This document shows, piece after piece, positions 8,800 through 32,956 of a stretch of DNA of 64,000 nt. The notes below the pieces were generated by a model. That model searched no databases, was not told the origin of the DNA, and was given only the letters and a program-made list of their open reading frames with translations. The DNA is taken from the NCBI RefSeq assembly GCF_029227855.1, contig NZ_CP074356.1. One strand, given 5' to 3'. Source of the DNA: Escherichia coli. GTDB lineage: Bacteria > Pseudomonadota > Gammaproteobacteria > Enterobacterales > Enterobacteriaceae. Numbering within the stretch: the stretch's first letter is position 1; every line of letters starts with the position of its first letter. The position numbers and the translations under genes are program-made.

Positions 8800-10019
8800 A
8801 AATACTGGTCTACGGCATTAACTACTCGCCGGAGTTAACCGGCATCGGCAAATACACCGGAGAGATGGTGGAATGGCTTGCGGCACAAGGTCATGAGGTG
8901 CGGGTCATAACCGCACCGCCTTACTACCCGCAGTGGCAGGTGGGCGAGAACTATTCCGCCTGGCGCTACAAACGAGAAGAGGGGGCCGCCACGGTGTGGC
9001 GCTGCCCGCTGTACGTGCCAAAACAGCCGAGCACCCTGAAACGCTTGTTGCATCTCGGCAGTTTTGCCGTCAGCAGTTTTTTCCCGTTGATGGCGCAACG
9101 TCGCTGGAAGCCGGATCGCATTATTGGCGTGGTGCCAACGCTGTTTTGCACGCCGGGAATGCGCCTGCTGGCGAAACTCTCTGGCGCGCGTACCGTGCTG
9201 CATATTCAGGATTACGAAGTGGACGCCATGCTGGGGCTGGGCCTTGCCGGAAAAGGCAAAGGCGGCAAAGTGGCACAGCTGGCGACGGCGTTCGAACGTA
9301 GCGGACTGCATAACGTCGATAACGTCTCCACGATTTCGCGCTCGATGATGAATAAAGCCATCGAAAAAGGCGTGGCGGCGGAAAACGTCATCTTCTTCCC
9401 CAACTGGTCGGAAATCGCCCGTTTTCAATATGTTGCAGACGCCGATGTTGATGCCCTTCGTAACCAGCTTGGCCTGCCGGATAACAAAAAAATCATTCTT
9501 TACTCCGGCAATATTGGTGAAAAGCAGGGGCTGGAAAACGTTATTGAAGCTGCCGATCACCTGCGCGATGAACCGCTGATTTTTGCCATTGTCGGGCAGG
9601 GCGGCGGCAAAGCGCGGCTGGAAAAAATGGCGCAGCAGCGCGGACTGCGCAACATGCAATTTTTTCCGCTGCAATCGTATGACGCTTTACCCGCACTGCT
9701 GAAGATGGGCGATTGCCATCTGGTGGTGCAAAAACGCGGCGCGGCAGATGCCGTATTGCCGTCGAAACTGACCAATATTCTGGCGGTAGGCGGTAACGCG
9801 GTGATTACCGCAGAAGCCCACACCGAACTGGGGCAGCTTTGCGAAACCTTTCCGGGCATTGCGGTTTGCGTAGAGCCGGAATCGGTCGAGGCGCTGGTGG
9901 CGGGGATCCGTCAGGCGCTCCTGCTGCCCAAACACAACACGGTGGCATGTGAATATGCCGAACGCACGCTCGATAAAGAGAACGTGTTACGTCAATTTAT
10001 AAATGATATTCGGGGATAA
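8796..10019 (+). CDS. wcaI: Colanic acid biosynthesis glycosyltransferase WcaI (GT4)
   Basis: 407 aa ORF; GT4 architecture; conserved position. Confidence 0.92.
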
Positions 10020-10021
10020 TT

Positions 10022-11458
10022 ATGGCGCAGTCGAAACTCTATCCAGTTGTGATGGCAGGTGGCTCCGGTAGCCGCTTATGGCCGCTTTCCCGCGTACTTT
10101 ACCCCAAGCAGTTTTTATGCCTGAAAGGCGATCTCACCATGCTGCAAACCACCATCTGCCGCCTGAACGGCGTGGAGTGCGAAAGCCCGGTGGTGATTTG
10201 CAATGAGCAGCACCGCTTTATTGTCGCGGAACAGCTGCGTCAACTGAACAAACTCACCGAGAATATTATTCTCGAACCGGCAGGGCGTAACACTGCACCT
10301 GCCATTGCACTGGCGGCGCTGGCGGCAAAACGTCATAGCCCGGAGAGCGACCCGTTAATGCTGGTGCTGGCGGCGGATCATGTGATTGCCGATGAAGACG
10401 CGTTCCGTGCCGCCGTGCGTAATGCCATGCCGTATGCCGAAGCGGGCAAGCTGGTGACCTTTGGCATTGTGCCGGATCTACCAGAAACCGGTTATGGCTA
10501 TATTCGTCGCGGTGAAGTGTCTGCGGGTGAGCAGGATACGGTGGCCTTTGAAGTGGCGCAGTTTGTCGAAAAACCGAATCTGGAAACCGCTCAGGCCTAT
10601 GTGGCAAGCGGCGAATATTACTGGAACAGCGGTATGTTTCTGTTCCGCGCCGGACGCTATCTCGAAGAACTGAAAAAATATCGCCCGGATATTCTCGACG
10701 CCTGTGAAAAAGCGATGAGCGCCGTCGATCCGGATCTCGATTTTATTCGTGTGAATGAAGACGCGTTTCTGGCGTGCCCGGAAGAGTCGGTGGATTACGC
10801 GGTCATGGAACGTACGGCAGATGCTGTTGTGGTGCCGATGGATGCGGGCTGGAGCGATGTTGGTTCCTGGTCCTCTTTATGGGAAATCAGCGCCCACACC
10901 GCCGAGGGCAACGTTTGCCACGGCGATGTGATTAATCATAAAACTGAAAACAGCTATGTGTACGCCGAATCTGGCCTGGTCACCACCGTCGGGGTGAAAG
11001 ATTTGGTGGTAGTGCAGACCAAAGATGCGGTGCTGATTGCCGACCGTAACGCGGTACAGGATGTGAAAAAAGTGGTCGAGCAGATCAAAGCCGACGGTCG
11101 CCATGAGCATCGGGTGCATCGCGAAGTGTATCGTCCGTGGGGCAAATATGACTCTATTGATGCGGGCGACCGCTACCAGGTGAAACGCATCACCGTGAAA
11201 CCGGGCGAAGGCTTGTCAGTACAGATGCACCATCACCGCGCGGAACACTGGGTAGTGGTCGCGGGAACGGCAAAAGTCACTATTGACGGTGATATCAAAC
11301 TGCTTGGTGAAAACGAGTCCATTTATATTCCGCTGGGGGCGACGCACTGCCTGGAAAACCCGGGGAAAATTCCGCTCGATTTAATTGAAGTGCGCTCCGG
11401 CTCTTATCTCGAAGAGGATGATGTGGTGCGCTTCGCGGATCGCTACGGACGGGTGTAG
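10022..11458 (+). CDS. manC: Mannose-1-phosphate guanylyltransferase
   Basis: 478 aa ORF; nucleotidyltransferase N-terminus [14 protein letters not shown] and C-terminal cupin domain. Confidence 0.95.
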
Positions 11459-11558
11459 CCGTTGAATAATCAACCGGATTAATTCTCCGGTAAATAACGA
11501 AAAAACAAAATTGGCCGCTTCGGTCAGGGCCAACTATTGCCTGAAAAAGGGTAACGAT

Positions 11559-12929
11559 ATGAAAAAATTAACCTGCTTTAAAGCCTATGATATTCGCGGG
11601 AAATTAGGCGAAGAACTGAATGAAGATATTGCCTGGCGTATTGGGCGTGCCTATGGCGAATTTCTCAAACCGAAAACCATTGTGTTAGGCGGTGATGTCC
11701 GCCTCACCAGCGAAACCTTAAAACTGGCGCTGGCAAAAGGTTTACAGGATACGGGCGTCGATGTGCTGGATATTGGCATGTCCGGCACCGAAGAGATCTA
11801 TTTCGCCACGTTCCATCTCGGCGTGGCTGGCGGCATTGAAGTTACCGCCAGCCATAACCCGATGGATTACAACGGCATGAAACTGGTGCGCGAAGGGGCT
11901 CGCCCGATCAGCGGCGATACCGGACTGCGCGACGTCCAGCGTCTGGCAGAAGCCAATGACTTCCCTCCTGTCGATGAAACCAAACGCGGTCGCTATCAGC
12001 AAATCAATCTGCGTGACGCTTACGTTGATCACCTGTTCGGCTATATCAACGTCAAAAACCTCACGCCGCTCAAGCTGGTGATCAACTCCGGGAACGGCGC
12101 GGCGGGGCCGGTGGTGGACGCCATTGAAGCTCGCTTTAAAGCCCTCGGCGCACCCGTGGAATTGATCAAAGTGCACAACACGCCGGACGGGAATTTCCCC
12201 AACGGTATACCTAACCCGCTGCTGCCGGAATGTCGCGACGACACCCGCAATGCGGTCATCAAACACGGCGCGGATATGGGCATTGCTTTTGATGGCGATT
12301 TTGACCGCTGCTTCCTGTTTGACGAAAAAGGGCAGTTTATCGAGGGCTACTACATTGTCGGCCTGCTGGCAGAAGCGTTCCTCGAAAAAAATCCCGGCGC
12401 GAAGATCATCCACGATCCACGTCTCTCCTGGAACACCGTTGATGTGGTGACTGCCGCTGGCGGCACGCCGGTGATGTCGAAAACCGGACACGCCTTTATT
12501 AAAGAACGTATGCGCAAGGAAGACGCCATCTACGGTGGCGAAATGAGCGCTCACCATTACTTCCGCGATTTCGCTTACTGTGACAGCGGCATGATCCCGT
12601 GGCTGCTGGTCGCCGAACTGGTGTGCCTGAAAGGAAAAACGCTGGGCGAACTGGTGCGCGACCGGATGGCGGCGTTTCCGGCAAGCGGTGAGATCAACAG
12701 CAAACTGGCACACCCCGTTGAGGCGATTAACCGCGTGGAACAGCATTTTAGCCGTGAGGCGCTGGCGGTGGATCGCACCGATGGCATCAGCATGACCTTT
12801 GCCGACTGGCGCTTTAACCTGCGCTCCTCCAACACCGAACCGGTGGTGCGGTTGAATGTGGAATCGCGCGGCGATGTACCGCTGATGGAAGCGCGAACGC
12901 GAACTCTGCTGACGTTGCTGAACGAGTAA
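11559..12929 (+). CDS. manB: Phosphomannomutase
   Basis: 456 aa from [14 protein letters not shown]; active-site TASHNP motif; the ORF track's upstream start at 11511 is a likely over-extension. Confidence 0.93.
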
Positions 12930-18437: not shown

Positions 18438-19832
18438 ATGCCATTTAAAAAACTCTCCCGACGCACCTTCCTGACGGCAAGCTCGGCGCTTGCCTTCCTC
18501 CATACCCCTTTCGCCCGTGCACTTCCTGCCCGAGCAAGCGTTAACATTAACGATTACAATCCACACGACTGGATTGCTTCATTTAAACAAGCCTTCAGCG
18601 AAGGGCAAACGGTCGTCGTGCCTGCCGGATTGGTTTGCGACAATATCAACACCGACATCTTCATTCCTGCAGGTAAAACGTTACACATCCTTGGAAGCCT
18701 GCGCGGCAACGGCAGAGGGCGATTTGTCTTACAGGACGGCAGCCAGGTGACAGGGGAGGAGGGCGGCAGTATGCATAACATCACCCTGGATGTGCGTGGT
18801 TCTGACTGCACCATCAAAGGGCTGGCGATGAGCGGCTTTGGTCCGGTAACGCAGATTTATATCGGCGGCAAAAACAAACGGGTCATGCGCAACCTGACCA
18901 TCGATAACCTGACCGTTAGCCACGCTAATTACGCCATCTTACGCCAGGGATTTCATAACCAGATTATCGGTGCCAACATCACCAACTGTAAGTTCAGCGA
19001 CTTACAGGGCGACGCCATTGAATGGAACGTGGCGATTAACGACCGTGATATTTTGATATCCGACCACATCATCGAGCGCATCAACTGTACCAACGGCAAA
19101 ATCAACTGGGGCATCGGCATAGGCCTTGCGGGGAGTACTTATGATAATAACTACCCGGAAGACCAGGCAGTGAAAAACTTTGTCGTGGCGAATATCACGG
19201 GATCGGATTGTCGACAGTTGATCCATGTTGAAAATGGTAAACATTTTGTTATTCGTAATATCAAAGCCCGCAATATCACGCCGGATTTCAGTAAGAAAGC
19301 AGGTATTGATAACGCCACAGTTGCTATTTATGGTTGTGACAACTTTGTGATTGATAATATTGAAATGATTAATAGTGCCGGGATGTTAATCGGCTATGGG
19401 GTAATTAAAGGCAAATATCTCTCGATACCGCAGAATTTCCGGGTGAATAATATTCAACTGGATAATACTCATCTTGCTTATAAATTGCGCGGCATTCAAA
19501 TCTCCGCCGGGAATGCTGTCTCCTTTGTGGCGCTGACTAACATTGAGATGAAGCGTGCCTCGCTTGAGCTACACAATAAACCGCAACACCTTTTTATGCG
19601 TAATATCAAGGTGATGCAGGAATCCGCAGTTGGACCCGCATTGAGCATGAACTTCGACATGCGCAAAGACGTTCGCGGCGTGTTTATGGCGAAAAAAGAA
19701 ACACTGCTATCTCTTGCAAATGTTCATGCGGTGAATGAAAAAGGACAAAGCTCGGTCGATATCGACAGGATTAATCACCATATTGTTAATGTGGAAAAGA
19801 TTAACTTTAGATTGCCGGAACGGAGAGAGTAG
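18438..19832 (+). CDS. wcaM: Colanic acid biosynthesis protein WcaM (twin-arginine-type signal, predicted beta-helix)
   Basis: 464 aa ORF; N-terminus [15 protein letters not shown] resembles a Tat signal; last gene of the cluster. Confidence 0.9.
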
Positions 19833-20006
19833 ATTTGCGACCATTCCTGGAAAAATGGAGCCATACTTAGGAACAATGCTACTGCAATCCACAACGAAGC
19901 GGCGTAACATTACAAGTAATTCAGTAATCAATTCAGGGTAATTGATGCTGGCGAAAAAAATCGAACAAGCTATAATTCAGCAACCATTTTACAGGTGGAT
20001 GAAATA

Positions 20007-20900
20007 ATGACGAATTTAAAAGCAGTTATTCCTGTAGCGGGTCTTGGGATGCATATGTTGCCTGCCACTAAGGCGATTCCCAAAGAGATGCTACCCATCG
20101 TCGACAAGCCAATGATTCAGTACATTGTTGACGAGATTGTGGCTGCAGGGATCAAAGAAATCCTCCTGGTAACTCACGCGTCCAAGAACGCGGTCGAAAA
20201 CCACTTCGACACCTCTTATGAATTAGAATCTCTCCTTGAGCAGCGCGTGAAGCGTCAACTGCTTGCGGAAGTGCAGTCCATCTGTCCTCCGGGCGTGACC
20301 ATTATGAACGTGCGTCAGGGCGAACCTTTAGGTTTAGGCCACTCCATTTTATGTGCACGACCTGCTATTGGTGACAACCCATTTGTCGTGGTGCTGCCAG
20401 ACGTTGTGATCGACGACGCGAGTGCCGACCCGCTGCGTTACAACCTTGCTGCCATGATTGCGCGCTTCAACGAAACGGGCCGCAGCCAGGTGCTGGCAAA
20501 ACGTATGCCGGGTGACCTCTCTGAATACTCTGTCATCCAGACCAAAGAGCCGCTGGACCGTGAAGGTAAGGTCAGCCGCATTGTTGAATTTATCGAAAAA
20601 CCAGATCAGCCGCAGACGCTGGACTCAGACATCATGGCCGTTGGCCGCTATGTGCTTTCTGCCGATATTTGGCCGGAGCTAGAACGCACTCAGCCTGGTG
20701 CATGGGGACGTATCCAACTGACAGATGCTATTGCCGAACTGGCGAAAAAACAGTCCGTTGAAGCCATGCTGATGACCGGCGACAGTTACGACTGCGGTAA
20801 AAAAATGGGTTATATGCAAGCGTTCGTGAAGTATGGACTACGCAACCTGAAAGAAGGGGCGAAGTTCCGTAAAGGGATTGAGAAGCTGTTAAGCGAATAA
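20007..20900 (+). CDS. galF: UTP-glucose-1-phosphate uridylyltransferase regulatory subunit GalF
   Basis: 297 aa from [30 protein letters not shown]; matches recalled GalF. Confidence 0.95.
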
Positions 20901-21157
20901 TGAAAATCTAACCGAATGTAACGGTTGATAAGAAAATTGTAACGGCAGTGAGGATTCGTGGCGAAAGTAATTGTTGCGAATATTCCTGCCGTTGTTTTAT
21001 ATAAACAATCAGAATAACAACGAGTTAGCAATAGGATTTTAGTCAAAGTTTTCCAGGATTTTCCTTGTTTCCAGAGCGGATTGGTAAGACAATTAGCGTT
21101 TGAATTTTTCGGGTTTAGCGCGAGTGGGTAACGCTCGTCACATCGTAGACATGCATG

Positions 21158-21196
21158 CAGTACTCTGGTAGCTGTAAAGCCAGGGGCGGTAGCGTG
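21158..21196 (+). promoter_or_regulatory. JUMPStart element with ops (RfaH-dependent antitermination) upstream of the O-antigen cluster
   Basis: cagtactctggtagctgtaaagccaggggcggtagcgtg contains the ops core GGCGGTAGCGTG at 21185..21196. Confidence 0.85.
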
Positions 21197-21336
21197 TCTA
21201 GTTCAATCCGAGTAAATTAAAAATAATAGTTTTGGAAAAATTGTCTTTATAATGTTAACAAAGCAAGAGTAGGTAATACATATCGTTTTGACATGTATTG
21301 CACTTAAAGAAAACATATCAATTAAATTATCATACT

Positions 21337-22362
21337 ATGCTTATTTACAATACAATATTTGTCTTTTTATCATTTCTTGCACTTTTAGATTTAAGTCATA
21401 AAAAAAATTTGTTATTTTTTTTATTTCCTTGTTTTATATTACTACTGTTAACTGCTATTCGTGGTAATGGAGGAGATGATTTTTATGTGTATGAAAAATA
21501 TTTTAACGCTCTTCCTAATGAAATTTTTAACTATGGATATGGTTATTATAGTTTAAATATGTTTGTTAAAAATTTTGGAGAGTATCCTTTTTTTATTATC
21601 ATTTCATCAATAATATGCATAACTCTTCAGGCAATTTTTATTTATCGTGAGACTGAAAAACCAACTCTGGTTTTGTTTTTATTTTATTCAACTAGCTTTT
21701 TATGGTTGGATTTTATTTTAATTAGGCAGTCAATTTCCGTTGGTTTTTTTATTTTGGCAATATCATTTTTCAAAAATAATAAAAAAATTTTTGCCTGTCT
21801 GTTTTTGATTCTATCTTCATTATTTCATGAGACCGCTATTTTTGCTGGAGTAGTTTTTTATATTTTATACAGAGCCGAGAAGGCAGGTTTTCTTTTTACA
21901 ATTGGCTCGGTATTAATTATTGCACCATTTTTATCTGATATAATCACTATCATAAATGATATGACGATAAAAAATAATAATATAACTCTCTATCTGGAGC
22001 AGCGTACCTTACCAAGCATTGCAAATGTAATTGAGTTAACAATAGCATTTGTTGCATTTTATATAATTAATAAAAATTCCGTGTTTAGAGAGAGTAATGA
22101 GTATAAAATATATAAAAGTATACTATATTCTTCACTATGCATACTATTATTGTCTTATACAATCCCATCATTGGCTAGATTCCTAGAATTTTTTCGTTTT
22201 TTTTACTTCATTTTAGTAGTTAGAATGCTAATGCAATTTAATGTGAGAAGTAGATATCTTTTTTTTGTAATTATACTAGCGTACTGTTTTATGAGACTTA
22301 ATAGCTTCATAAATCAATTTGATTCTGGTTTTGATTATATTTATAATGGAAAAATACTGTGA
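21337..22362 (+). CDS. wzy: Putative O-antigen polymerase Wzy (EpsG-like polytopic membrane protein)
   Basis: Very hydrophobic AT-rich ORF; N-terminal RGNGGDDFYVYEKYF resembles the EpsG/Wzy family; ATG at 21337 chosen over the TTG at 21298. Confidence 0.55.
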   Translation: MLIYNTIFVFLSFLALLDLSHKKNLLFFLFPCFILLLLTAIRGNGGDDFYVYEKYFNALPNEIFNYGYGYYSLNMFVKNFGEYPFFIIISSIICITLQAIFIYRETEKPTLVLFLFYSTSFLWLDFILIRQSISVGFFILAISFFKNNKKIFACLFLILSSLFHETAIFAGVVFYILYRAEKAGFLFTIGSVLIIAPFLSDIITIINDMTIKNNNITLYLEQRTLPSIANVIELTIAFVAFYIINKNSVFRESNEYKIYKSILYSSLCILLLSYTIPSLARFLEFFRFFYFILVVRMLMQFNVRSRYLFFVIILAYCFMRLNSFINQFDSGFDYIYNGKIL

Positions 22363-23228
22363 CTATATTATTTTCTGTTATTACTCCTACCTATAATAGG
22401 GCAGATGAGTTAAGCTCATTGTTCAAAAGTCTTAATAATCAAGAGGGTATCGAATTCGAATGGGTGATAATTGATGATGGTTCTGAAGATCATACACAAC
22501 AACAAGTTAATGACTTCAAAAAACATAATAAAAACATCACAGATATAAAATATTTTTATCAAGAGAATAAAGGTAAAAATTCTGCTGTAATTAGAGGGAT
22601 TCAGAATGCTTCCGGCGATTATATTGTGGTGATTGATAGCGATGATTATTTATTGGATGATGCTTTAATAAGAGTAAAAAATATATTAGATGAAGAGAGT
22701 GTTAATGGCGATGATAAAATAATTGGCATTTCAGGTGTTAAAGTTAAAAGTGATTTCACACCTGTAAGTTATATTAGCAACTCTTCGGCATTGCGAATGA
22801 GTCATTATGAGTGGTTTTATAAGTTTCAGCGGTTAGGTGATCGGATTGACTTTTATAAAGCCCGAGTGCTTAAAGAGAAAATATTTAATGCATTTCCAAA
22901 GGAAAAGTTTATTACAGAAGACGCATATTGGTTGGACCTCGTTGGGGAAAAAATTTTCATAAATGAACCGTTATTAGTAATAAAATATTTAGAGGGAGGG
23001 CTTAGTTCAAGTTACTCATTACTCCTGCGAAACAGTCCTTTTGGAACATCATATTATTATTATATTCTATTAATTAATGCTGATAATTTTAAAACAAAAC
23101 TTAAAGCATCATTATTGATGATGTACTATATATTTGTTACCATATTAAAAAATAGTAATATAGTAATTGGGTTATTGTCACTCATGTTATTTCCAATCTT
23201 ATGTATAATAAAATTCTTTCGAAGCTAA
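22359..23228 (+). CDS. Glycosyltransferase family 2 (O-antigen)
   Basis: 289 aa; SVITPTYNRADEL and DSDD motifs typical of GT2; GTG start overlapping the wzy stop. Confidence 0.75.
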   Translation: MTILFSVITPTYNRADELSSLFKSLNNQEGIEFEWVIIDDGSEDHTQQQVNDFKKHNKNITDIKYFYQENKGKNSAVIRGIQNASGDYIVVIDSDDYLLDDALIRVKNILDEESVNGDDKIIGISGVKVKSDFTPVSYISNSSALRMSHYEWFYKFQRLGDRIDFYKARVLKEKIFNAFPKEKFITEDAYWLDLVGEKIFINEPLLVIKYLEGGLSSSYSLLLRNSPFGTSYYYYILLINADNFKTKLKASLLMMYYIFVTILKNSNIVIGLLSLMLFPILCIIKFFRS

Positions 23229-24406
23229 GAAACACTATTCTTCCTTGTTTCACTCTAGGAACGTCGACGATTTTTTTCTTTGCGATAGGTTTCTTCTTTG
23301 GTATAAATGAAAAATCTGATTTTATATTATTTACGATTACTTTACTTTCAACCATTGGAACTATTCTTCAAATTTCTTGGTATGGATTGTTACCTCGTTT
23401 GAGTTCGAGTTCAAGCTTAAAATTTTTAGGTTATATTATTTCTAATGGTTTTATCTACTGTTTGATCATAAATACCCTACCATTTGTGATTTTAACTCTG
23501 AACTTTACAAACTTTTTTTTTGCAGGGTGTCTCTACTCTTTATTTTTCCAACTGCATCAGTATCTTAAGAATGTTTTTGTTTATCTTGGGCGGCTTAAAG
23601 CATTTTATATTTTTGATGCCATCGGCTATGCCATATGTGTTATAAGTATTACTGTGTTCCAAAAATATCTATTACATTCAAACCCTCAGGATTTATTTGT
23701 TCTGCTTTCGTTATGTTGGCTTTTAATAGTAATTGGTGAGGTCGTACATCTTAAACTATATATTAATTATGACATATCTGTAAAGCCTGTTTATGTATGT
23801 ATTATTCCAACATGGAAAACAAGGATTGCAAACAGTGGTTTTATTGTGAAAGATCTTTTAACTGCGTATGCGCTTAATATACTTGCGCCGGTAGGCGGTT
23901 TAACTATATATTCATACGCAAGTAAGATTTCAACAGCTGTTTTTCAATTATTCTCTCAATATAAAGTAAATGCTTGGGTGGGCAGCATAAGAAAAAAAAG
24001 GTTAAGTGAAGTAGAATACGGTGATATAAAAAAAGTGTCATTATCTTCTTCAATTGATTTTTGTATTTTTCAGATCGTTGCATGGCTTTGTATCTTACCT
24101 ATTATATTATATAATGGCACAAATATAAATATTGAATGGTATGTATTAAGTATTATTACTGGTGGATTACTATACTTGATACAATCAATGGAACAGCCTT
24201 ATGCTAGATTTATTTATATGTCACGACATTTTACCGATATTGCCATCGCAGATGGAATAAATTTTATTATTTATATGGTTTTCTTTTCATATGGATTGTT
24301 AATGTTAAATGTATATTATCTATTTTTAGGTATTATATTAGCTCAATTATGTTCACTAGTTACTTATTCTTTATTTTGCAAGAGGTTGTTTAGGAATGAT
24401 ACCTAA
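23201..24406 (+). CDS. wzx: Putative O-antigen flippase Wzx (polytopic membrane protein)
   Basis: 401 aa hydrophobic ORF with many predicted TM segments; position within O-antigen cluster; the Wzx/Wzy assignment between the two membrane proteins is inference. Confidence 0.5.
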   Translation: MYNKILSKLRNTILPCFTLGTSTIFFFAIGFFFGINEKSDFILFTITLLSTIGTILQISWYGLLPRLSSSSSLKFLGYIISNGFIYCLIINTLPFVILTLNFTNFFFAGCLYSLFFQLHQYLKNVFVYLGRLKAFYIFDAIGYAICVISITVFQKYLLHSNPQDLFVLLSLCWLLIVIGEVVHLKLYINYDISVKPVYVCIIPTWKTRIANSGFIVKDLLTAYALNILAPVGGLTIYSYASKISTAVFQLFSQYKVNAWVGSIRKKRLSEVEYGDIKKVSLSSSIDFCIFQIVAWLCILPIILYNGTNINIEWYVLSIITGGLLYLIQSMEQPYARFIYMSRHFTDIAIADGINFIIYMVFFSYGLLMLNVYYLFLGIILAQLCSLVTYSLFCKRLFRNDT

Positions 24407-25052
24407 AATAATACATTACTGTTGGTTCGGGGGCGGGGATAAACCTGCTTTAGTTAAAAAATGTATGGGGACATGGGAAAAAGTCTTGCCTGGTTGGGAT
24501 ATTATTGAATGGAACGAAGATAATTCGCCAGTATCAGTTCCTTATGTAAAAAATGCGTTAGAAGATAAACGATATGCATTTGCTGCTGATTATGTAAGAT
24601 TCTATGCGCTAAAAACCATGGGAGGAGTTTATCTTGATACTGATATGGAATTGATCAAAGATATTTCTCCGCTTTTGAATAATAAATTCTTTACAGCGAA
24701 AGAATCAGAGGAGCTTATTAATGCAGCAATAATGGGGAGTGAAAAAGATGGGAGATTTGTCAATTTAGTAATCCAAGAATTACAATTGCGCACAGGACAT
24801 ACTTACGAATCTATACCAAAAATACTTACTGATATATTTAATACAGGAAATGGATTTAAAGATGAAACAACCATTTATGATAAGGAATATTTTTATCCTT
24901 ATAATCCCTTTGATAATAAACGAAATGAAGTTAAACAACTTTTCTATTGTGATATAACTCCTCATACTTATGCCATTCATCACTGGCAACAAAGTTGGCA
25001 CTATACATTTCTTGAACGGGTTATTAACAGAATAAGGATGCTTATAAAGTGA
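24396..25052 (+). CDS. Glycosyltransferase, GT32-like sugar-binding family (DXD motif)
   Basis: 218 aa; IIHYCWFGG N-terminus and YLDTDME motif. Confidence 0.7.
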   Translation: MIPKIIHYCWFGGGDKPALVKKCMGTWEKVLPGWDIIEWNEDNSPVSVPYVKNALEDKRYAFAADYVRFYALKTMGGVYLDTDMELIKDISPLLNNKFFTAKESEELINAAIMGSEKDGRFVNLVIQELQLRTGHTYESIPKILTDIFNTGNGFKDETTIYDKEYFYPYNPFDNKRNEVKQLFYCDITPHTYAIHHWQQSWHYTFLERVINRIRMLIK

Positions 25053-25819
25053 GTGGAAATAAATTAATAAGCATAATTATGGCATCAAATAAAATAGATG
25101 AGTTTCTACCTCTGGCAATAAACTCAATTCTTGAACAAACATATCAAAATATCGAAGTGATTTTTGTTGCTAATGGTGATAAAGCTCACTGTATTAGTTT
25201 GTATATAAAAAATTTTTTTAAAGATGAGCGAATCAAAATTTATGAAACACCAATAGGCCAACTATCACATGCGCTTAACCTCGCTATTTCTAACGCATCG
25301 GGTGATTATATTGCCCGCATGGATGCTGATGACATTAGTTTACCTGAGCGATTAACTAAACAGTTGGAATATTTAAGGTCACATAATTTAGATATGGTAG
25401 GTTCGGATATAATTCACATAGATACAAATGGAGAAGTTATTGGGATTAAACATTATCCCAAAGGGTTAAATAAAATTAACAAACAATTGTATTTTAGGAA
25501 TACTTTTTCGCATAGCACTATACTAATCAAAAAAAAAATACTCATTTCAGCGAGAGGCTACAATGCTGGATTTAATTCAGAGGACTATGATCTCTGGTTA
25601 AGATTAAGACGGAAGAATATCAAATGGGATAATATGGAGGAATGCCTCTTAAAATATCGTATACATAGTGCATCTACACAAAGGAAGAGATTGGGTTACG
25701 CCGAAGTCGCGGGTTATTCTCTACGTGAATTTTTATTACGTTTCTCATTTATTGGTATTTTTTCTGTTTTAATTCATATTGTTAAAGTTTATATTAAATC
25801 ATCTTCTCATGAAGAATGA
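25049..25819 (+). CDS. Glycosyltransferase family 2 (O-antigen)
   Basis: 256 aa; GT2-like N-terminus and DADD motif; GTG start overlapping the upstream stop. Confidence 0.7.
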   Translation: MSGNKLISIIMASNKIDEFLPLAINSILEQTYQNIEVIFVANGDKAHCISLYIKNFFKDERIKIYETPIGQLSHALNLAISNASGDYIARMDADDISLPERLTKQLEYLRSHNLDMVGSDIIHIDTNGEVIGIKHYPKGLNKINKQLYFRNTFSHSTILIKKKILISARGYNAGFNSEDYDLWLRLRRKNIKWDNMEECLLKYRIHSASTQRKRLGYAEVAGYSLREFLLRFSFIGIFSVLIHIVKVYIKSSSHEE

Positions 25820-26010
25820 TTTATATTTTAGGATAATTAACTATTTAAATTAGAATCATTTGAGCAAACTTAGGTAACTCTATATAATACACAGCATTGC
25901 AAATGAGTAACATATTGGAATAGCCATTCAATGGTAATATTACAAATTGCTTTAATAATAATGGATCATTTAGCTATGGTGCAATATTTTCTTCTTGCGG
26001 AATTTTACCC

Positions 26011-27129
26011 ATGAAAATACTTCTAATAGGAAACCTCTCTGATACTATTGTATTATTCAGAGAGAAGTTAATAAGAGAGTTGATTAAAAAAAATATCACG
26101 GTTTATACATTAACGATGGATTCTAATCAAGAAAACTTCAACATCATTGCCAGCTACGGGGCCAAACCTGATTCATACTCTTTTTCTCGTTCAGGTACAA
26201 ATCCTTTTTCTGATATTTGGGATACATACAAATTAAATAAAAAAATAAAAAAAATAAAACCTGACGTTGTTCTTTCTTTTTTTCCAAAACCTGTTATTTA
26301 TGGTTCTTTAGCTGCTAAAATAGCAGGGGTGAAAAAAATATTTAGTCTCTTGGAAGGACTTGGTTTTTGCTATACGAATAATTCTAGTCCAATTAGTCTC
26401 AAAAGGAAGATATTAAAATGTATACAAACAATGCTATACAGAATTAGCTTGCCATTATGTAATAAAGTTTTTTTCTTAAACAAGGATGATTTTAATGATC
26501 TCATTATTGATAATAAAATAACCATAAAGAATTATGAAATAATTGGTGGAATTGGTGTTAATTTAGAAGAGTACAGTTATAAGCAACCAAAGATTGATAA
26601 AATACATTTTGGGATGGTTTCGCGATTACTAGTCGAGAAAGGTATTCGCGAATTTGTTTTGGCCGCGAGCCAGGTGAAAAAAAAATTTCCTGAGGTCGAA
26701 TTTAGTATTGCTGGCGCAATTGATGATAATCCTGGTGGTATAACCGAAGATGAGATAAAAAAATGGGAATCAGAGGGGGTTGTCAAATTTTTAGGTCAAG
26801 TTTCTAATGTTAAAAGTTATTTATCTAATATCTCTGTTTTCGTTTTGCCATCTTACCGAGAAGGCGTACCAAGAAGTACTCAAGAAGCGATGGCTATTGG
26901 GCTTCCAATAATTACAACTAATGTTCCTGGTTGTCGTGATACAATTATCAATATGGTAAATGGAATCATGATCCCACCATTTGATATTCAGTCTCTAGCG
27001 GACGCAATGGTATTTTTTATACAAAACCCTCAGAGTATAACAATAATGGGTAGAGAAAGTAGAATAATTGCAGAGAAAAAGTTTAATGAAATAGAAGCCG
27101 CGAATAAATTACTTAAATTAATAATCTAA
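26011..27129 (+). CDS. Glycosyltransferase family 4 (GT-B fold, O-antigen)
   Basis: 372 aa; C-terminal EGVPRSTQEAMAIGLPII resembles the GT4 EX7E region. Confidence 0.75.
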   Translation: MKILLIGNLSDTIVLFREKLIRELIKKNITVYTLTMDSNQENFNIIASYGAKPDSYSFSRSGTNPFSDIWDTYKLNKKIKKIKPDVVLSFFPKPVIYGSLAAKIAGVKKIFSLLEGLGFCYTNNSSPISLKRKILKCIQTMLYRISLPLCNKVFFLNKDDFNDLIIDNKITIKNYEIIGGIGVNLEEYSYKQPKIDKIHFGMVSRLLVEKGIREFVLAASQVKKKFPEVEFSIAGAIDDNPGGITEDEIKKWESEGVVKFLGQVSNVKSYLSNISVFVLPSYREGVPRSTQEAMAIGLPIITTNVPGCRDTIINMVNGIMIPPFDIQSLADAMVFFIQNPQSITIMGRESRIIAEKKFNEIEAANKLLKLII

Positions 27130-27159
27130 TATATAGATTAACATCTACCGGAGTGTTTT

Positions 27160-28179
27160 ATGGCTATTCTTGTTACTGGCGGAGTTGGTTATATCGCTTC
27201 GCACACTATTATAACTTTACTAGAAAAAGGTGAAGAAGTTATAATACTTGATAATTTATCAAATTCATTCTACGAATCTTTGCATAAAGTTAAAAAAATT
27301 ACCGGGTATGATAGTCGATTTTATAGAGGTGATATACTTGACAAAGAGCTCTTACGCAAAATATTCAAAGAAAACACTATTTCTGACGTAATTCATTTTG
27401 CAGGCTATAAATCTGTAAAAGAATCCATTTCTCACCCATTGAAATACTATCAAAATAACGTTTCTGGTACATTGTCATTAATAGATGCGATGGGGGAGGC
27501 TTGTGTAAAAAGTTTGATTTTTAGCTCATCAGCTACAGTATATGGTGAACCAGAAAGAATACCTTTAGATGAAAATTGCAGAATTGGAGGTACAACGAAT
27601 CCATACGGCACGTCCAAGTTATTCGTAGAAAAATTCCTTATTGATTATTCACATGCATTCCCTGATTTTAGAACTACCATCTTAAGATATTTCAACCCTG
27701 TCGGTGCTCATCCATCTGGTGAAATAGGGGAAGATCCCAATGGTATACCTAACAACTTAATGCCATATATATGTCAAGTTGCTATAGGGAAGCAACAACA
27801 CCTCACTATCTTTGGTAGCGATTATCCAACAAAAGATGGTACAGGTGTTCGTGATTATATCCATGTCATGGATCTTGCTGAAGGGCATGTTGCAGCGTTA
27901 GAACATCGAAATGAAGGAGCAAATTGCAAGATCTATAATCTCGGGACGGGCACAGGATACTCAGTACTGGAACTTGTTGATGCATTTCAAAGAGTTACTG
28001 CACGTAAAGTTCCATATGTATTCAGTAAACGACGACCTGGTGATATTGCTGAGTGTTGGTCTGATCCTTCTAAGGCTTATAGGGAACTTGGATGGAAAGC
28101 GAAGCGTGGGTTGGAAGAAATGGTTCGAGATGCCTGGAATTGGCAACAAAAGAATCCGAACGGTTATATAAAAGCATGA
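27160..28179 (+). CDS. gne: UDP-hexose 4-epimerase of the GalE/Gne family (likely UDP-GlcNAc/UDP-Glc 4-epimerase)
   Basis: 339 aa; Rossmann GGVGYIASH, catalytic YGTSK motif; located immediately upstream of gnd. Confidence 0.85.
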   Translation: MAILVTGGVGYIASHTIITLLEKGEEVIILDNLSNSFYESLHKVKKITGYDSRFYRGDILDKELLRKIFKENTISDVIHFAGYKSVKESISHPLKYYQNNVSGTLSLIDAMGEACVKSLIFSSSATVYGEPERIPLDENCRIGGTTNPYGTSKLFVEKFLIDYSHAFPDFRTTILRYFNPVGAHPSGEIGEDPNGIPNNLMPYICQVAIGKQQHLTIFGSDYPTKDGTGVRDYIHVMDLAEGHVAALEHRNEGANCKIYNLGTGTGYSVLELVDAFQRVTARKVPYVFSKRRPGDIAECWSDPSKAYRELGWKAKRGLEEMVRDAWNWQQKNPNGYIKA

Positions 28180-28297
28180 ATGCTCAATGGTATTTTTGTC
28201 AATCTTAAAAATTATCGATTTTATGTATCCTGAGTTAACATAGCATCTACATTGACCTGAGTTATGTTTCGCAGTATCACCCTGACAGGAGTAAACA

Positions 28298-29704
28298 ATG
28301 TCAAAGCAACAGATCGGCGTAGTCGGTATGGCAGTGATGGGGCGCAACCTTGCGCTCAACATCGAAAGCCGTGGTTATACCGTCTCTATTTTCAACCGTT
28401 CCCGTGAGAAGACGGAAGAAGTGATTGCCGAAAATCCAGGCAAGAAACTGGTTCCTTACTATACGGTGAAAGAGTTTGTTGAATCTCTGGAAACGCCTCG
28501 TCGCATCCTGTTAATGGTGAAAGCAGGTGCAGGCACGGATGCTGCTATTGATTCCCTCAAGCCGTACCTCGATAAAGGTGACATCATCATTGATGGTGGT
28601 AACACCTTCTTCCAGGACACCATTCGTCGTAACCGTGAGCTTTCTTCAGAAGGCTTTAACTTCATCGGTACCGGTGTCTCCGGTGGTGAAGAAGGTGCGC
28701 TGAAAGGTCCTTCCATTATGCCTGGTGGGCAGAAAGAAGCCTATGAACTGGTAGCGCCGATCCTGACCAAAATCGCCGCAGTAGCTGAAGACGGAGAGCC
28801 ATGCGTTACCTATATTGGTGCCGATGGTGCAGGTCACTATGTGAAGATGGTTCACAACGGTATTGAATACGGTGATATGCAACTGATTGCTGAAGCCTAT
28901 TCTCTCCTGAAAGGCGGCCTGAATCTCTCTAACGAAGAACTGGCACAGACCTTTACCGAGTGGAATAACGGTGAACTGAGTAGCTATCTGATCGACATCA
29001 CCAAAGATATCTTCACCAAAAAAGATGAAGACGGTAACTACCTGGTTGATGTGATCCTGGATGAAGCAGCAAACAAAGGTACGGGCAAATGGACCAGCCA
29101 GAGCGCGCTGGATCTCGGCGAACCACTGTCTCTGATTACCGAGTCTGTGTTTGCACGTTATATCTCTTCTCTGAAAGATCAGCGCGTTGCCGCATCTAAA
29201 GTTCTTTCTGGTCCGCAAGCGCAGCCGGCAGGCGACAAAGCTGAGTTCATTGAAAAAGTTCGCCGTGCGCTGTATCTGGGCAAAATCGTTTCTTACGCTC
29301 AGGGCTTTTCTCAGCTACGCGCCGCGTCTGAAGAGTACAATTGGGATCTGAACTACGGCGAAATCGCGAAGATTTTCCGTGCTGGTTGCATCATCCGTGC
29401 GCAGTTCCTGCAGAAAATCACCGATGCATATTCCGAAAACCCGCAGATCGCTAACCTGCTGCTGGCTCCGTACTTCAAGCAAATTGCCGATGACTACCAG
29501 CAGGCGCTGCGTGATGTCGTTGCTTATGCGGTACAGAACGGTATCCCGGTTCCGACCTTCGCCGCTGCGGTTGCCTATTATGACAGCTACCGTGCTGCTG
29601 TTCTGCCTGCGAATCTGATCCAGGCTCAGCGTGACTATTTTGGTGCGCATACTTATAAGCGCATTGATAAAGAAGGTGTGTTCCATACTGAATGGCTGGA
29701 TTAA
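28298..29704 (+). CDS. gnd: 6-phosphogluconate dehydrogenase, decarboxylating
   Basis: 468 aa; [28 protein letters not shown]-terminus; matches recalled Gnd. Confidence 0.97.
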
Positions 29705-31830: not shown

Positions 31831-31975
31831 CATCCTGTTATCAGGGCTATTTACGCCCTGATTGTCTTTTGTTACTTGCGTAACAATTCATTATTTTTAT
31901 CAATTATCCTATAGCATTCATGAGGATTATCGCTAAACTATGCGGACTTGGAAATTTCCGTCAGTTAGGGTAATG

Positions 31976-32956
31976 ATGAGAGTAGAAAATAATAATGTTT
32001 CTGGGCAAAACCATGACCCGGAACAGATTGATTTGATTGATTTACTAGTGCAGTTGTGGCGTGGCAAGATGACAATCATCATTTCCGTCATTGTGGCTAT
32101 TGCCCTGGCTATTGGATATTTGGCAGTAGCGAAGGAGAAATGGACGTCAACAGCAATTATCACTCAGCCCGATGTGGGGCAAATTGCTGGCTATAACAAT
32201 GCCATGAATGTTATCTATGGTCAGGCTGCACCGAAAGTATCGGATTTGCAGGAGACGTTAATTGGTCGCTTCAGTTCTGCCTTCTCTGCATTAGCAGAAA
32301 CGCTGGATAATCAGGAAGAACCAGAAAAACTTACCATCGAACCTTCTGTTAAGAACCAGCAATTACCATTGACTGTTTCTTATGTTGGGCAAACTGCAGA
32401 GGGCGCACAAATGAAGTTGGCCCAATACATTCAGCAAGTTGACGATAAAGTGAATCAAGAGTTAGAAAAGGATCTCAAGGACAACATTGCTCTGGGACGG
32501 AAAAACTTGCAGGACTCTTTAAGAACGCAGGAAGTGGTTGCGCAGGAGCAGAAAGATCTGCGTATCCGTCAGATTCAGGAAGCGTTGCAGTATGCGAATC
32601 AGGCGCAGGTGACAAAACCGCAGATTCAACAGACTGGCGAAGATATCACACAAGATACGTTGTTCCTTTTGGGGAGCGAAGCGCTGGAGTCGATGATTAA
32701 GCATGAGGCGACTCGTCCGTTGGTGTTCTCACCAAACTACTATCAGACACGTCAAAACCTGCTGGATATCGAAAGCTTAAAAGTTGATGATCTTGATATT
32801 CATGCTTACCGTTATGTGATGAAACCGACGTTACCTATTCGTCGCGATAGCCCGAAAAAGGCAATTACCTTGATTCTGGCAGTGCTGCTGGGTGGCATGG
32901 TTGGCGCGGGGATTGTGCTGGGGCGTAACGCTCTGCGTAATTACAACGCGAAGTAA
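31976..32956 (+). CDS. wzzB: O-antigen chain-length determinant WzzB
   Basis: 326 aa from MRVENNNVSGQNHDPEQIDLIDLL; the ORF track start at 31940 is an upstream extension. Confidence 0.93.
   Translation: MRVENNNVSGQNHDPEQIDLIDLLVQLWRGKMTIIISVIVAIALAIGYLAVAKEKWTSTAIITQPDVGQIAGYNNAMNVIYGQAAPKVSDLQETLIGRFSSAFSALAETLDNQEEPEKLTIEPSVKNQQLPLTVSYVGQTAEGAQMKLAQYIQQVDDKVNQELEKDLKDNIALGRKNLQDSLRTQEVVAQEQKDLRIRQIQEALQYANQAQVTKPQIQQTGEDITQDTLFLLGSEALESMIKHEATRPLVFSPNYYQTRQNLLDIESLKVDDLDIHAYRYVMKPTLPIRRDSPKKAITLILAVLLGGMVGAGIVLGRNALRNYNAK

Follow-up and report, generated by a model that had tools for sequence, protein, structure and literature searches.

The O23 O-antigen cluster of Escherichia coli contains, at one of its gene junctions, 191 bp of noncoding DNA for which position has been kept in related clusters of other taxa but sequence has not. 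We put the probability at roughly 60% that this gap is an ordinary untranslated intercistronic spacer in a single RfaH-dependent O23 operon, unconstrained in sequence and lying 5' of a putative, widely distributed GalNAc module. Such a spacer would sit where the serogroup-specific genes (wzy, GT2a, wzx, GT32, and GT2b) meet the GalNAc module, and it would date back to the ancestor shared by the O23-type clusters of Escherichia, Citrobacter, and Salmonella. From then on it would have drifted freely in both sequence and length, with the last ~15 nt alone visibly constrained, and its end would give GT4 its own ribosome-binding site. Transcription would read through it from a promoter 5' of the JUMPstart element, carried by RfaH-modified RNA polymerase.

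The window, by which we mean the whole 64,000-nt stretch of DNA that was analyzed, is a piece of E. coli chromosome carrying the O23 O-antigen cluster. It runs from colanic-acid genes through galF, JUMPstart, and seven low-GC genes to gnd, ugd, wzz, and the his operon, and the order within the cluster is galF, JUMPstart, wzy, GT2a, wzx, GT32, GT2b, the gap, GT4, gne, and gnd (Table 1). A megablast search with positions 25400 to 26500 matched 21 of 5426 complete E. coli genomes, in which RefSeq names the wzy product "O23 family O-antigen polymerase" and the wzx product "O23 family O-antigen flippase." JUMPstart is a known marker of the start of RfaH-dependent O-antigen operons (Rfam RF01707). 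Outside the seven genes, GC content falls to 0.41 to 0.44 in the 3' portion of wcaM and on through the spacer to galF (window positions 18800 to 20200), well 5' of the O-antigen genes, and this tract may have arisen by old recombination at the border of the O-antigen locus. In 13TMH22, an O23 strain that is otherwise identical, IS1203 interrupts wzzB (L001, 11866 to 13101); the wzz gene of the window (31940 to 32956) is intact.

Table 1. Features of the O23 O-antigen cluster, with positions in the window
Feature	Position	Strand	Basis
galF	19995-20900		
JUMPstart (ops-containing), galF-wzy leader	21158-21196	+	Rfam RF01707, 60 bits (gathering score 35), E 3e-12
wzy (Pfam EpsG)	21337-22362	+	ORF, Pfam, RefSeq name
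GT2a (Pfam Glycos_transf_2)	22359-23228	+	ORF, Pfam
wzx	23201-24406	+	ORF, RefSeq name
GT32 (Pfam Gly_transf_sug)	24396-25052	+	ORF, Pfam
GT2b, family-2 glycosyltransferase, 256 aa, last gene 5' of the gap	25049-25819	+	Pfam PF00535, E 3e-23
Noncoding intercistronic spacer, 191 bp	25820-26010	.	Between GT2b stop and GT4 ATG
Candidate σ70 site TTGAGC-N17-TATAAT	25860-25888	+	Consensus scan, PWM
GT4 translation-initiation region (SD-like GCGGAA at 25997-26002)	25997-26010	+	Purine run common to homologues
GT4 glycosyltransferase, 372 aa, starts MKILLIGN	26011-27129	+	Pfam Glycos_transf_1, Glyco_trans_4_2
gne, GalE-family UDP-hexose/HexNAc 4-epimerase	27160-28179	+	NCBIfam GalE, 461-477 bits, above cut-off

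The sequence-only reading had described a 191-bp AT-rich noncoding gap, the only sizeable one in an otherwise overlapping cluster. The gap itself is real: it extends from the base after the GT2b stop codon to the base before the GT4 ATG, and both boundaries agree with the open reading frames and are identical in the RefSeq/PGAP annotation of O23 genomes. It is also the only sizeable gap among the seven genes, since the five upstream genes overlap each other by 4, 28, 11, and 4 nt and GT4 and gne are 30 nt apart; at the cluster edges, the galF-wzy spacer (436 bp) holds JUMPstart and the gne-gnd spacer measures 118 bp. The labels given to GT4 and to the last gene were likewise right, the former having GT4 Pfam domains and the latter being a GalE/Gne-type epimerase. 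The description as AT-rich holds against the genome but not against the cluster itself, where the GC content of the gap (26.7%) lies at the 21st percentile of 191-bp windows (mean 31.0%, standard deviation 4.8%). Neither strand has an open reading frame of more than 41 aa within the gap or extending across it, and the six-frame translations of the gap gave no Pfam match. Truncation of a neighboring gene was ruled out: GT2b has 256 aa compared to 253 to 255 aa in its homologues, and GT4 aligns with its homologues from residue 1.

Clusters of the same type were recovered from other taxa by protein search, a scan of genome contigs, and contig look-ups. The seven-gene order, with a gap at the equivalent junction, is found in E. 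coli O23, Citrobacter sedlakii (L085), Salmonella enterica subsp. arizonae CCUG 6322T (L027), and S. enterica subsp. houtenae (L088). The same gap is thus conserved in related clusters as far as its position is concerned, with lengths of 191, 251, 278, and 253 bp, respectively. Divergence is even across all seven genes, at 64 to 80% amino acid identity between E. coli and C. sedlakii and 55 to 71% between E. coli and S. arizonae, with GT4 and gne inside these ranges. Taking the three taxa together, identity is 55 to 80% upstream of the gap and 61 to 75% downstream of it, and GC3 is 0.19 to 0.25 upstream compared to 0.25 to 0.26 downstream. This even divergence and uniform GC3 indicate that the spacer and all seven genes were already together when the lineages separated and have been passed on jointly ever since. 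The S. houtenae cluster also has an extra acyltransferase gene (PF01757; L088, 10000 to 11103, within 9177 to 11674) in the gne-gnd interval, with ~820 and ~570 bp of noncoding DNA on its two sides, which suggests an O-acetylated variant of an O23-like antigen.

The sequence of the gap has not been kept in the same way. Local and semi-global alignments of the gaps of E. coli O23, C. sedlakii, S. arizonae, and E. coli O103 did not score above a null of 300 dinucleotide shuffles (z scores of -1.4 to 0.0), while the flanking genes hold 67 to 78% nucleotide identity. MAFFT alignments of the gaps looked partly aligned; they were rejected for all but the last ~15 nt, as local and semi-global scores did not exceed those of dinucleotide shuffles. 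Between S. arizonae and S. houtenae, 27.5% of the aligned gap sites differ, with a further 37 nt of indels, and 25 to 33% of the third codon positions of the seven genes differ. The gaps of two E. coli O23 lineages are 3.8% different and carry 10 nt of indels, compared to 1.3 to 2.0% difference in the adjacent genes, and among four genomes of the main lineage, SNPs occur at three sites of the gap but nowhere in 220 bp of coding sequence beside it. The gap therefore drifts at roughly the pace of silent sites and accepts indels; what has been conserved is its position, not its sequence.

The last ~15 nt are the sole recognizably conserved part. A Shine-Dalgarno-like GCGGAA lies ~8 to 9 nt 5' of the GT4 ATG, and a purine-rich motif (GGA, GGGA, AAGG, or GGGG) occurs 8 to 14 nt before the ATG in six clusters (E. 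coli O23, C. sedlakii, S. arizonae, S. houtenae, O103, and Escherichia albertii). From its sequence and placement, the GCGGAA region probably serves as the GT4 ribosome-binding site. GT4 needs a ribosome-binding site of its own because it lacks the translational coupling to a neighboring gene that the five upstream genes have.

Searches for known elements in the gap were negative. In positions 20800 to 28400, JUMPstart, at 21158, was the sole Rfam match at an E value of ≤1, so that the gap resembles the JUMPstart/ops leader (RF01707) as a noncoding stretch of one transcription unit but differs from it in matching neither JUMPstart nor ops. No terminator-like site (a GC-rich hairpin followed by a T run) was found in the gaps of E. 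coli O23, C. sedlakii, S. arizonae, and O103, which speaks against an intrinsic terminator or operon boundary there. With 25 C and 26 G among its 191 nt, the gap is C-poor and therefore a poor Rho-loading site; since the RNA is C-poor and a terminator is absent, we infer that the main transcript would read through. The gap has no notable repeats, only weak AT-rich inverted ones, and blastn at E values as permissive as ≤1 found no extra copies: it occurs once per genome, in only the 21 O23 genomes of the 5426. This single copy, restricted to O23 genomes, speaks against an insertion sequence remnant, a REP or ERIC element, or another dispersed repeat.

A cis-regulatory RNA leader, a small RNA, or a small protein that controls GT4-gne from within the spacer is a highly improbable reading and already largely refuted. 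At 191 nt the spacer is long enough to hold one, and a 27-aa open reading frame (25931 to 26014) overlaps the GT4 start. Against this, the RNA folds no better than its shuffles (z score of +0.80, with 164 of 200 shuffles folding at least as well), the Rfam search gave nothing in the gap, and there is no sequence conservation for base covariation to build on. Nor is any small open reading frame common to the gaps of E. coli O23, C. sedlakii, S. arizonae, and S. houtenae, which also disposes of a small conserved open reading frame as a candidate.

The gap does contain a promoter-like site. The candidate, TTGAGC-N17-TATAAT, matches the σ70 consensus at 10 of 12 positions, with a perfect -10 hexamer and the optimal 17-nt spacing, and ends 122 nt 5' of the GT4 ATG. 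Scored with a log-odds PWM under the base composition of the cluster, it reaches 12.8 bits and is the best plus-strand site in positions 20901 to 28297; this value is equalled by 17 of 2000 shuffled gap sequences (0.85%) and by no window among 628 of equal length from the rest of the cluster. The SNPs of the main lineage spare both hexamers, although they amount to three sites only. These properties speak for an internal promoter that would transcribe GT4-gne apart from the RfaH-dependent main promoter and thereby uncouple the supply of UDP-GalNAc and the expression of the second O-unit transferase from that of the other five genes, and so does the retention of a spacer in four taxa. A site this unusually good, matched by so few shuffles, also counts against a plain spacer.

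Other evidence points the other way. In the second O23 lineage, which comprises enterotoxigenic E. coli (ETEC) strains from pigs (L002) and a gut-metagenome contig (L005), a 9-bp deletion between the hexamers (within about 25867 to 25879) abolishes the site and leaves a best score of 8.1 bits; in the metagenome contig, GT4 and gne are intact. The orthologous gaps of C. sedlakii, S. arizonae, and S. houtenae reach only 7.9 to 8.2 bits, values equalled by 37 to 42% of control windows from their own clusters. Promoter-like sites are also not enriched overall: the consensus scan found 39 compared to 41.8 ± 5.8 expected from shuffles, and in none of the four regions scanned did the count exceed the number expected by chance from shuffling. 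The possibility of an internal promoter, raised in the sequence-only reading, thus holds to the extent that this lineage has the top σ70-like site of its cluster there, but the second O23 lineage has lost the site, and no orthologous gap scores above background. In E. coli CFT073, RfaH and the ops element of the 5' leader drive transcription through H-NS-bound O-antigen operons, and chromatin immunoprecipitation data showed that σ70 sites within the genes of RfaH-dependent, H-NS-bound operons, the O-antigen operon among them, add nothing to expression (PMC9765446). The candidate resembles such adventitious sites, and internal or secondary promoters of polysaccharide operons, in being a good -35/-10 pair in AT-rich, horizontally acquired DNA of an ops/JUMPstart-led operon; neither the sister O23 lineage nor the orthologous clusters have kept it. 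Judged on these sequence comparisons, a functionally important promoter at this site is possible but doubtful, and a promoter as the reason for the spacer's existence is less probable still. The site is most likely specific to its lineage and possibly adventitious, being of a kind that AT-rich DNA often contains. Some transcription of GT4-gne that does not depend on RfaH may start from it in this lineage, but it is not a conserved feature of the locus. Our literature search found no paper describing this spacer or an internal promoter in the O23 or O103 cluster.

Both members of the second O23 lineage are unusual in other respects. Strains ETEC1720 (L002; NZ_CP122859.1, 2202 to 7719), ETEC1722, and ETEC1739, from Belgian pigs, have a degraded variant of the O23 cluster in which IS1 has taken the place of galF, wzy, and GT2a together with the end of wcaM and the start of wzx; ETEC1720 moreover has its GT4 gene broken into three pieces. 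From this gene content, the three strains should be devoid of O23 O-antigen. The metagenome contig (UQVR01000036.1, 7224 bp) is filed as "uncultured Tenericutes bacterium UMGS686" but carries E. coli O23-variant genes, with GT4 and gne 98.7% and 98.8% identical at the amino acid level and the same 183-bp gap allele as in the pig strains. Almost certainly, this contig comes from E. coli and was mis-binned into a metagenome-assembled genome.

Downstream of the gap lie GT4 and gne. The best solved relative of GT4 is PglA (8dqd; E value of 2e-30 over the full length), an α-1,3-N-acetylgalactosaminyltransferase with a HexNAc-PP-undecaprenol acceptor, and by this similarity GT4 is probably an α1,3-GalNAc transferase acting on GlcNAc-PP-undecaprenol; gne is predicted to make UDP-GalNAc. 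The O23 O-unit contains one GalNAc and one GlcNAc, and GlcNAc was deduced to be the first sugar from the presence of gne in the cluster; the O103 O-unit likewise contains GalNAc and GlcNAc, gne is present, and GlcNAc has been proposed as the first sugar (PMC7685785). Together, GT4 and Gne would make up a GalNAc module responsible for addition of the second sugar. Among GT4 relatives of at least 57% identity, gne always lies downstream, at 15 to 97 nt in most and at 449 and 799 nt in two Yersinia clusters.

The sequence-only reading had also proposed that the gap could be a junction between modules of different origin. Some observations speak for this. GT4-gne is found behind an O103-type set (rml/fdt genes, wzx, GT2, GT2, wzy, and GT) in E. 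coli O103 (L003), an Enterobacteriaceae metagenome-assembled genome, Yersinia aldovae, Yersinia intermedia, Franconibacter, Pseudescherichia, Enterobacter, and Rahnella, and it also occurs behind an E. albertii-type set (L090; manB, wzx, wzy, GT11, and GT2) and in a Leclercia type (L093). DNA similarity between O23 and O103 extends from 8 nt 5' of the GT4 ATG to near the gne stop codon. In these respects the O23 locus is like other mosaic O-antigen clusters of the Enterobacterales, which are of low GC content between galF and gnd and in which gne and its cognate transferase travel together behind different gene sets (PMC7685785). The O23 locus differs from this pattern, however, in that no step in composition or divergence falls at the gap and in that GT2b, too, is found with the module in one further cluster type. 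In that cluster type, of E. albertii, a GT2b homologue that is 44% identical over its full length precedes a 140-bp gap, GT4, and gne, so that the shared block may span the gap (GT2b-spacer-GT4-gne) rather than stop there. What the junction proposal keeps is the occurrence of GT4-gne behind different gene sets; what it loses is any step in GC3 or divergence. The limit of the shared block coincides with the gap in the comparison with O103, but in the E. albertii type the block may extend across it. Composition and divergence give no sign, on any timescale that could be recovered, of a separate origin of the two halves, since GC3 and identity are even across the gap. Because the two sides have codiverged and have even GC3, any junction must be ancient, and an ancient module junction is how we would interpret the gap in this respect.

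The O103 cluster offers the closest parallel in layout: a 185-bp AT-rich noncoding gap lies 5' of a homologous GT4 (61% amino acid identity), which is followed by gne and gnd. Unlike in O23, the upstream gene belongs to another glycosyltransferase family, and the sequence of the O103 gap is unrelated. This 185-bp stretch (L003, 8824 to 9008) stands between a ~363-aa glycosyltransferase gene and GT4 and matches nothing to which it was compared. In eight related clusters from other genera (L006, L007, L008, and L092 to L096), the same two genes overlap or lie 3 nt apart (-4 to +3 nt). Since these O103-like and related clusters have no gap, the O103 gap looks like a separate insertion.

The presence of a gap largely follows the type of upstream partner. 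In about two dozen loci, from Acinetobacter to the Enterobacterales, GT4 abuts or overlaps an upstream gene for a ~365-aa glycosyltransferase (-5 to +3 nt), with O103 as an exception; other gaps before GT4 are found in Edwardsiella (43 nt), several Pseudomonas (26 to 174 nt), an Aeromonadales metagenome-assembled genome (76 nt), and Glaciimonas (128 nt). Wherever the neighbor is a GT2b homologue of at least 44% identity, the gap measures 140 to 278 bp. A gap with a GT2b-type partner, and usually none with the ~365-aa type, is what one would expect if the upstream partner had been replaced long ago and noncoding DNA had stayed behind. It is also consistent with a more specific reading, in which the gap is a decayed gene remnant or recombination scar, for example, the 3' end of a ~365-aa glycosyltransferase gene lost as a GT2b block joined GT4-gne; the variable gap length, as for decaying DNA, and the neutral-like rate of evolution agree with this. 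No trace of such a gene was detected. In a tblastn search against 96 related loci, the six-frame peptides of the gaps matched nothing at E values below ~0.01 except through flanking GT4 codons, and an HMM of the ~365-aa glycosyltransferase, built from a non-redundant set of 42 homologues, scored ≤0 bits on all six frames of six gaps; six-frame translation gave no Pfam match either. These negatives are weak, because divergence is saturated and no remnant would be expected to survive at the divergence reached. On balance, we regard a remnant or scar as improbable.

Two further points weigh against a plain spacer. Functionless DNA should shrink by deletion bias, yet 190 to 280 bp persist in four taxa, and 140 bp persist in the E. 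albertii type. In addition, an intergenic distance of 191 bp in E. coli is more typical of transcription-unit boundaries than of within-operon junctions, a feature that the gap would share with the start of a separately promoted unit. Persistence of the spacer, while GT4 abuts other partners elsewhere, hints at a role that depends on length or position. The spacer could then be a retained regulatory entry point, either a promoter kept through sequence turnover or an H-NS/RfaH-sensitive uncoupling region, through which GT4-gne would be expressed apart from the other O-unit genes. This would explain why 140 to 280 bp have been kept in Escherichia, Citrobacter, Salmonella, and E. albertii while GT4 abuts its neighbors elsewhere, and it would matter, for example, for the supply of UDP-GalNAc to other glycoconjugates. 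We consider a retained entry point unlikely and continue to favor an untranslated spacer whose sequence is unconstrained.

The overall importance of the gap is small, and no long-standing question is opened by it. If the σ70-like site were active, the O23 GalNAc transferase and epimerase would be transcribed in part independently of RfaH, which would be a small refinement of O-antigen operon regulation and relevant to O23 glycoconjugate engineering. For studies of cluster assembly, the locus is of modest use as a case in which GT4-gne has been reused behind at least three upstream gene sets and in which one family has kept the position of a spacer but not its sequence. Among the other hosts of GT4-gne, the O103-like cluster of Y. 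aldovae is probably decaying: one of its GT2 genes is split into open reading frames of 129 and 135 aa (L007, 3211 to 4108), and ~800 bp separate GT4 from gne (L007, 7486 to 8284).
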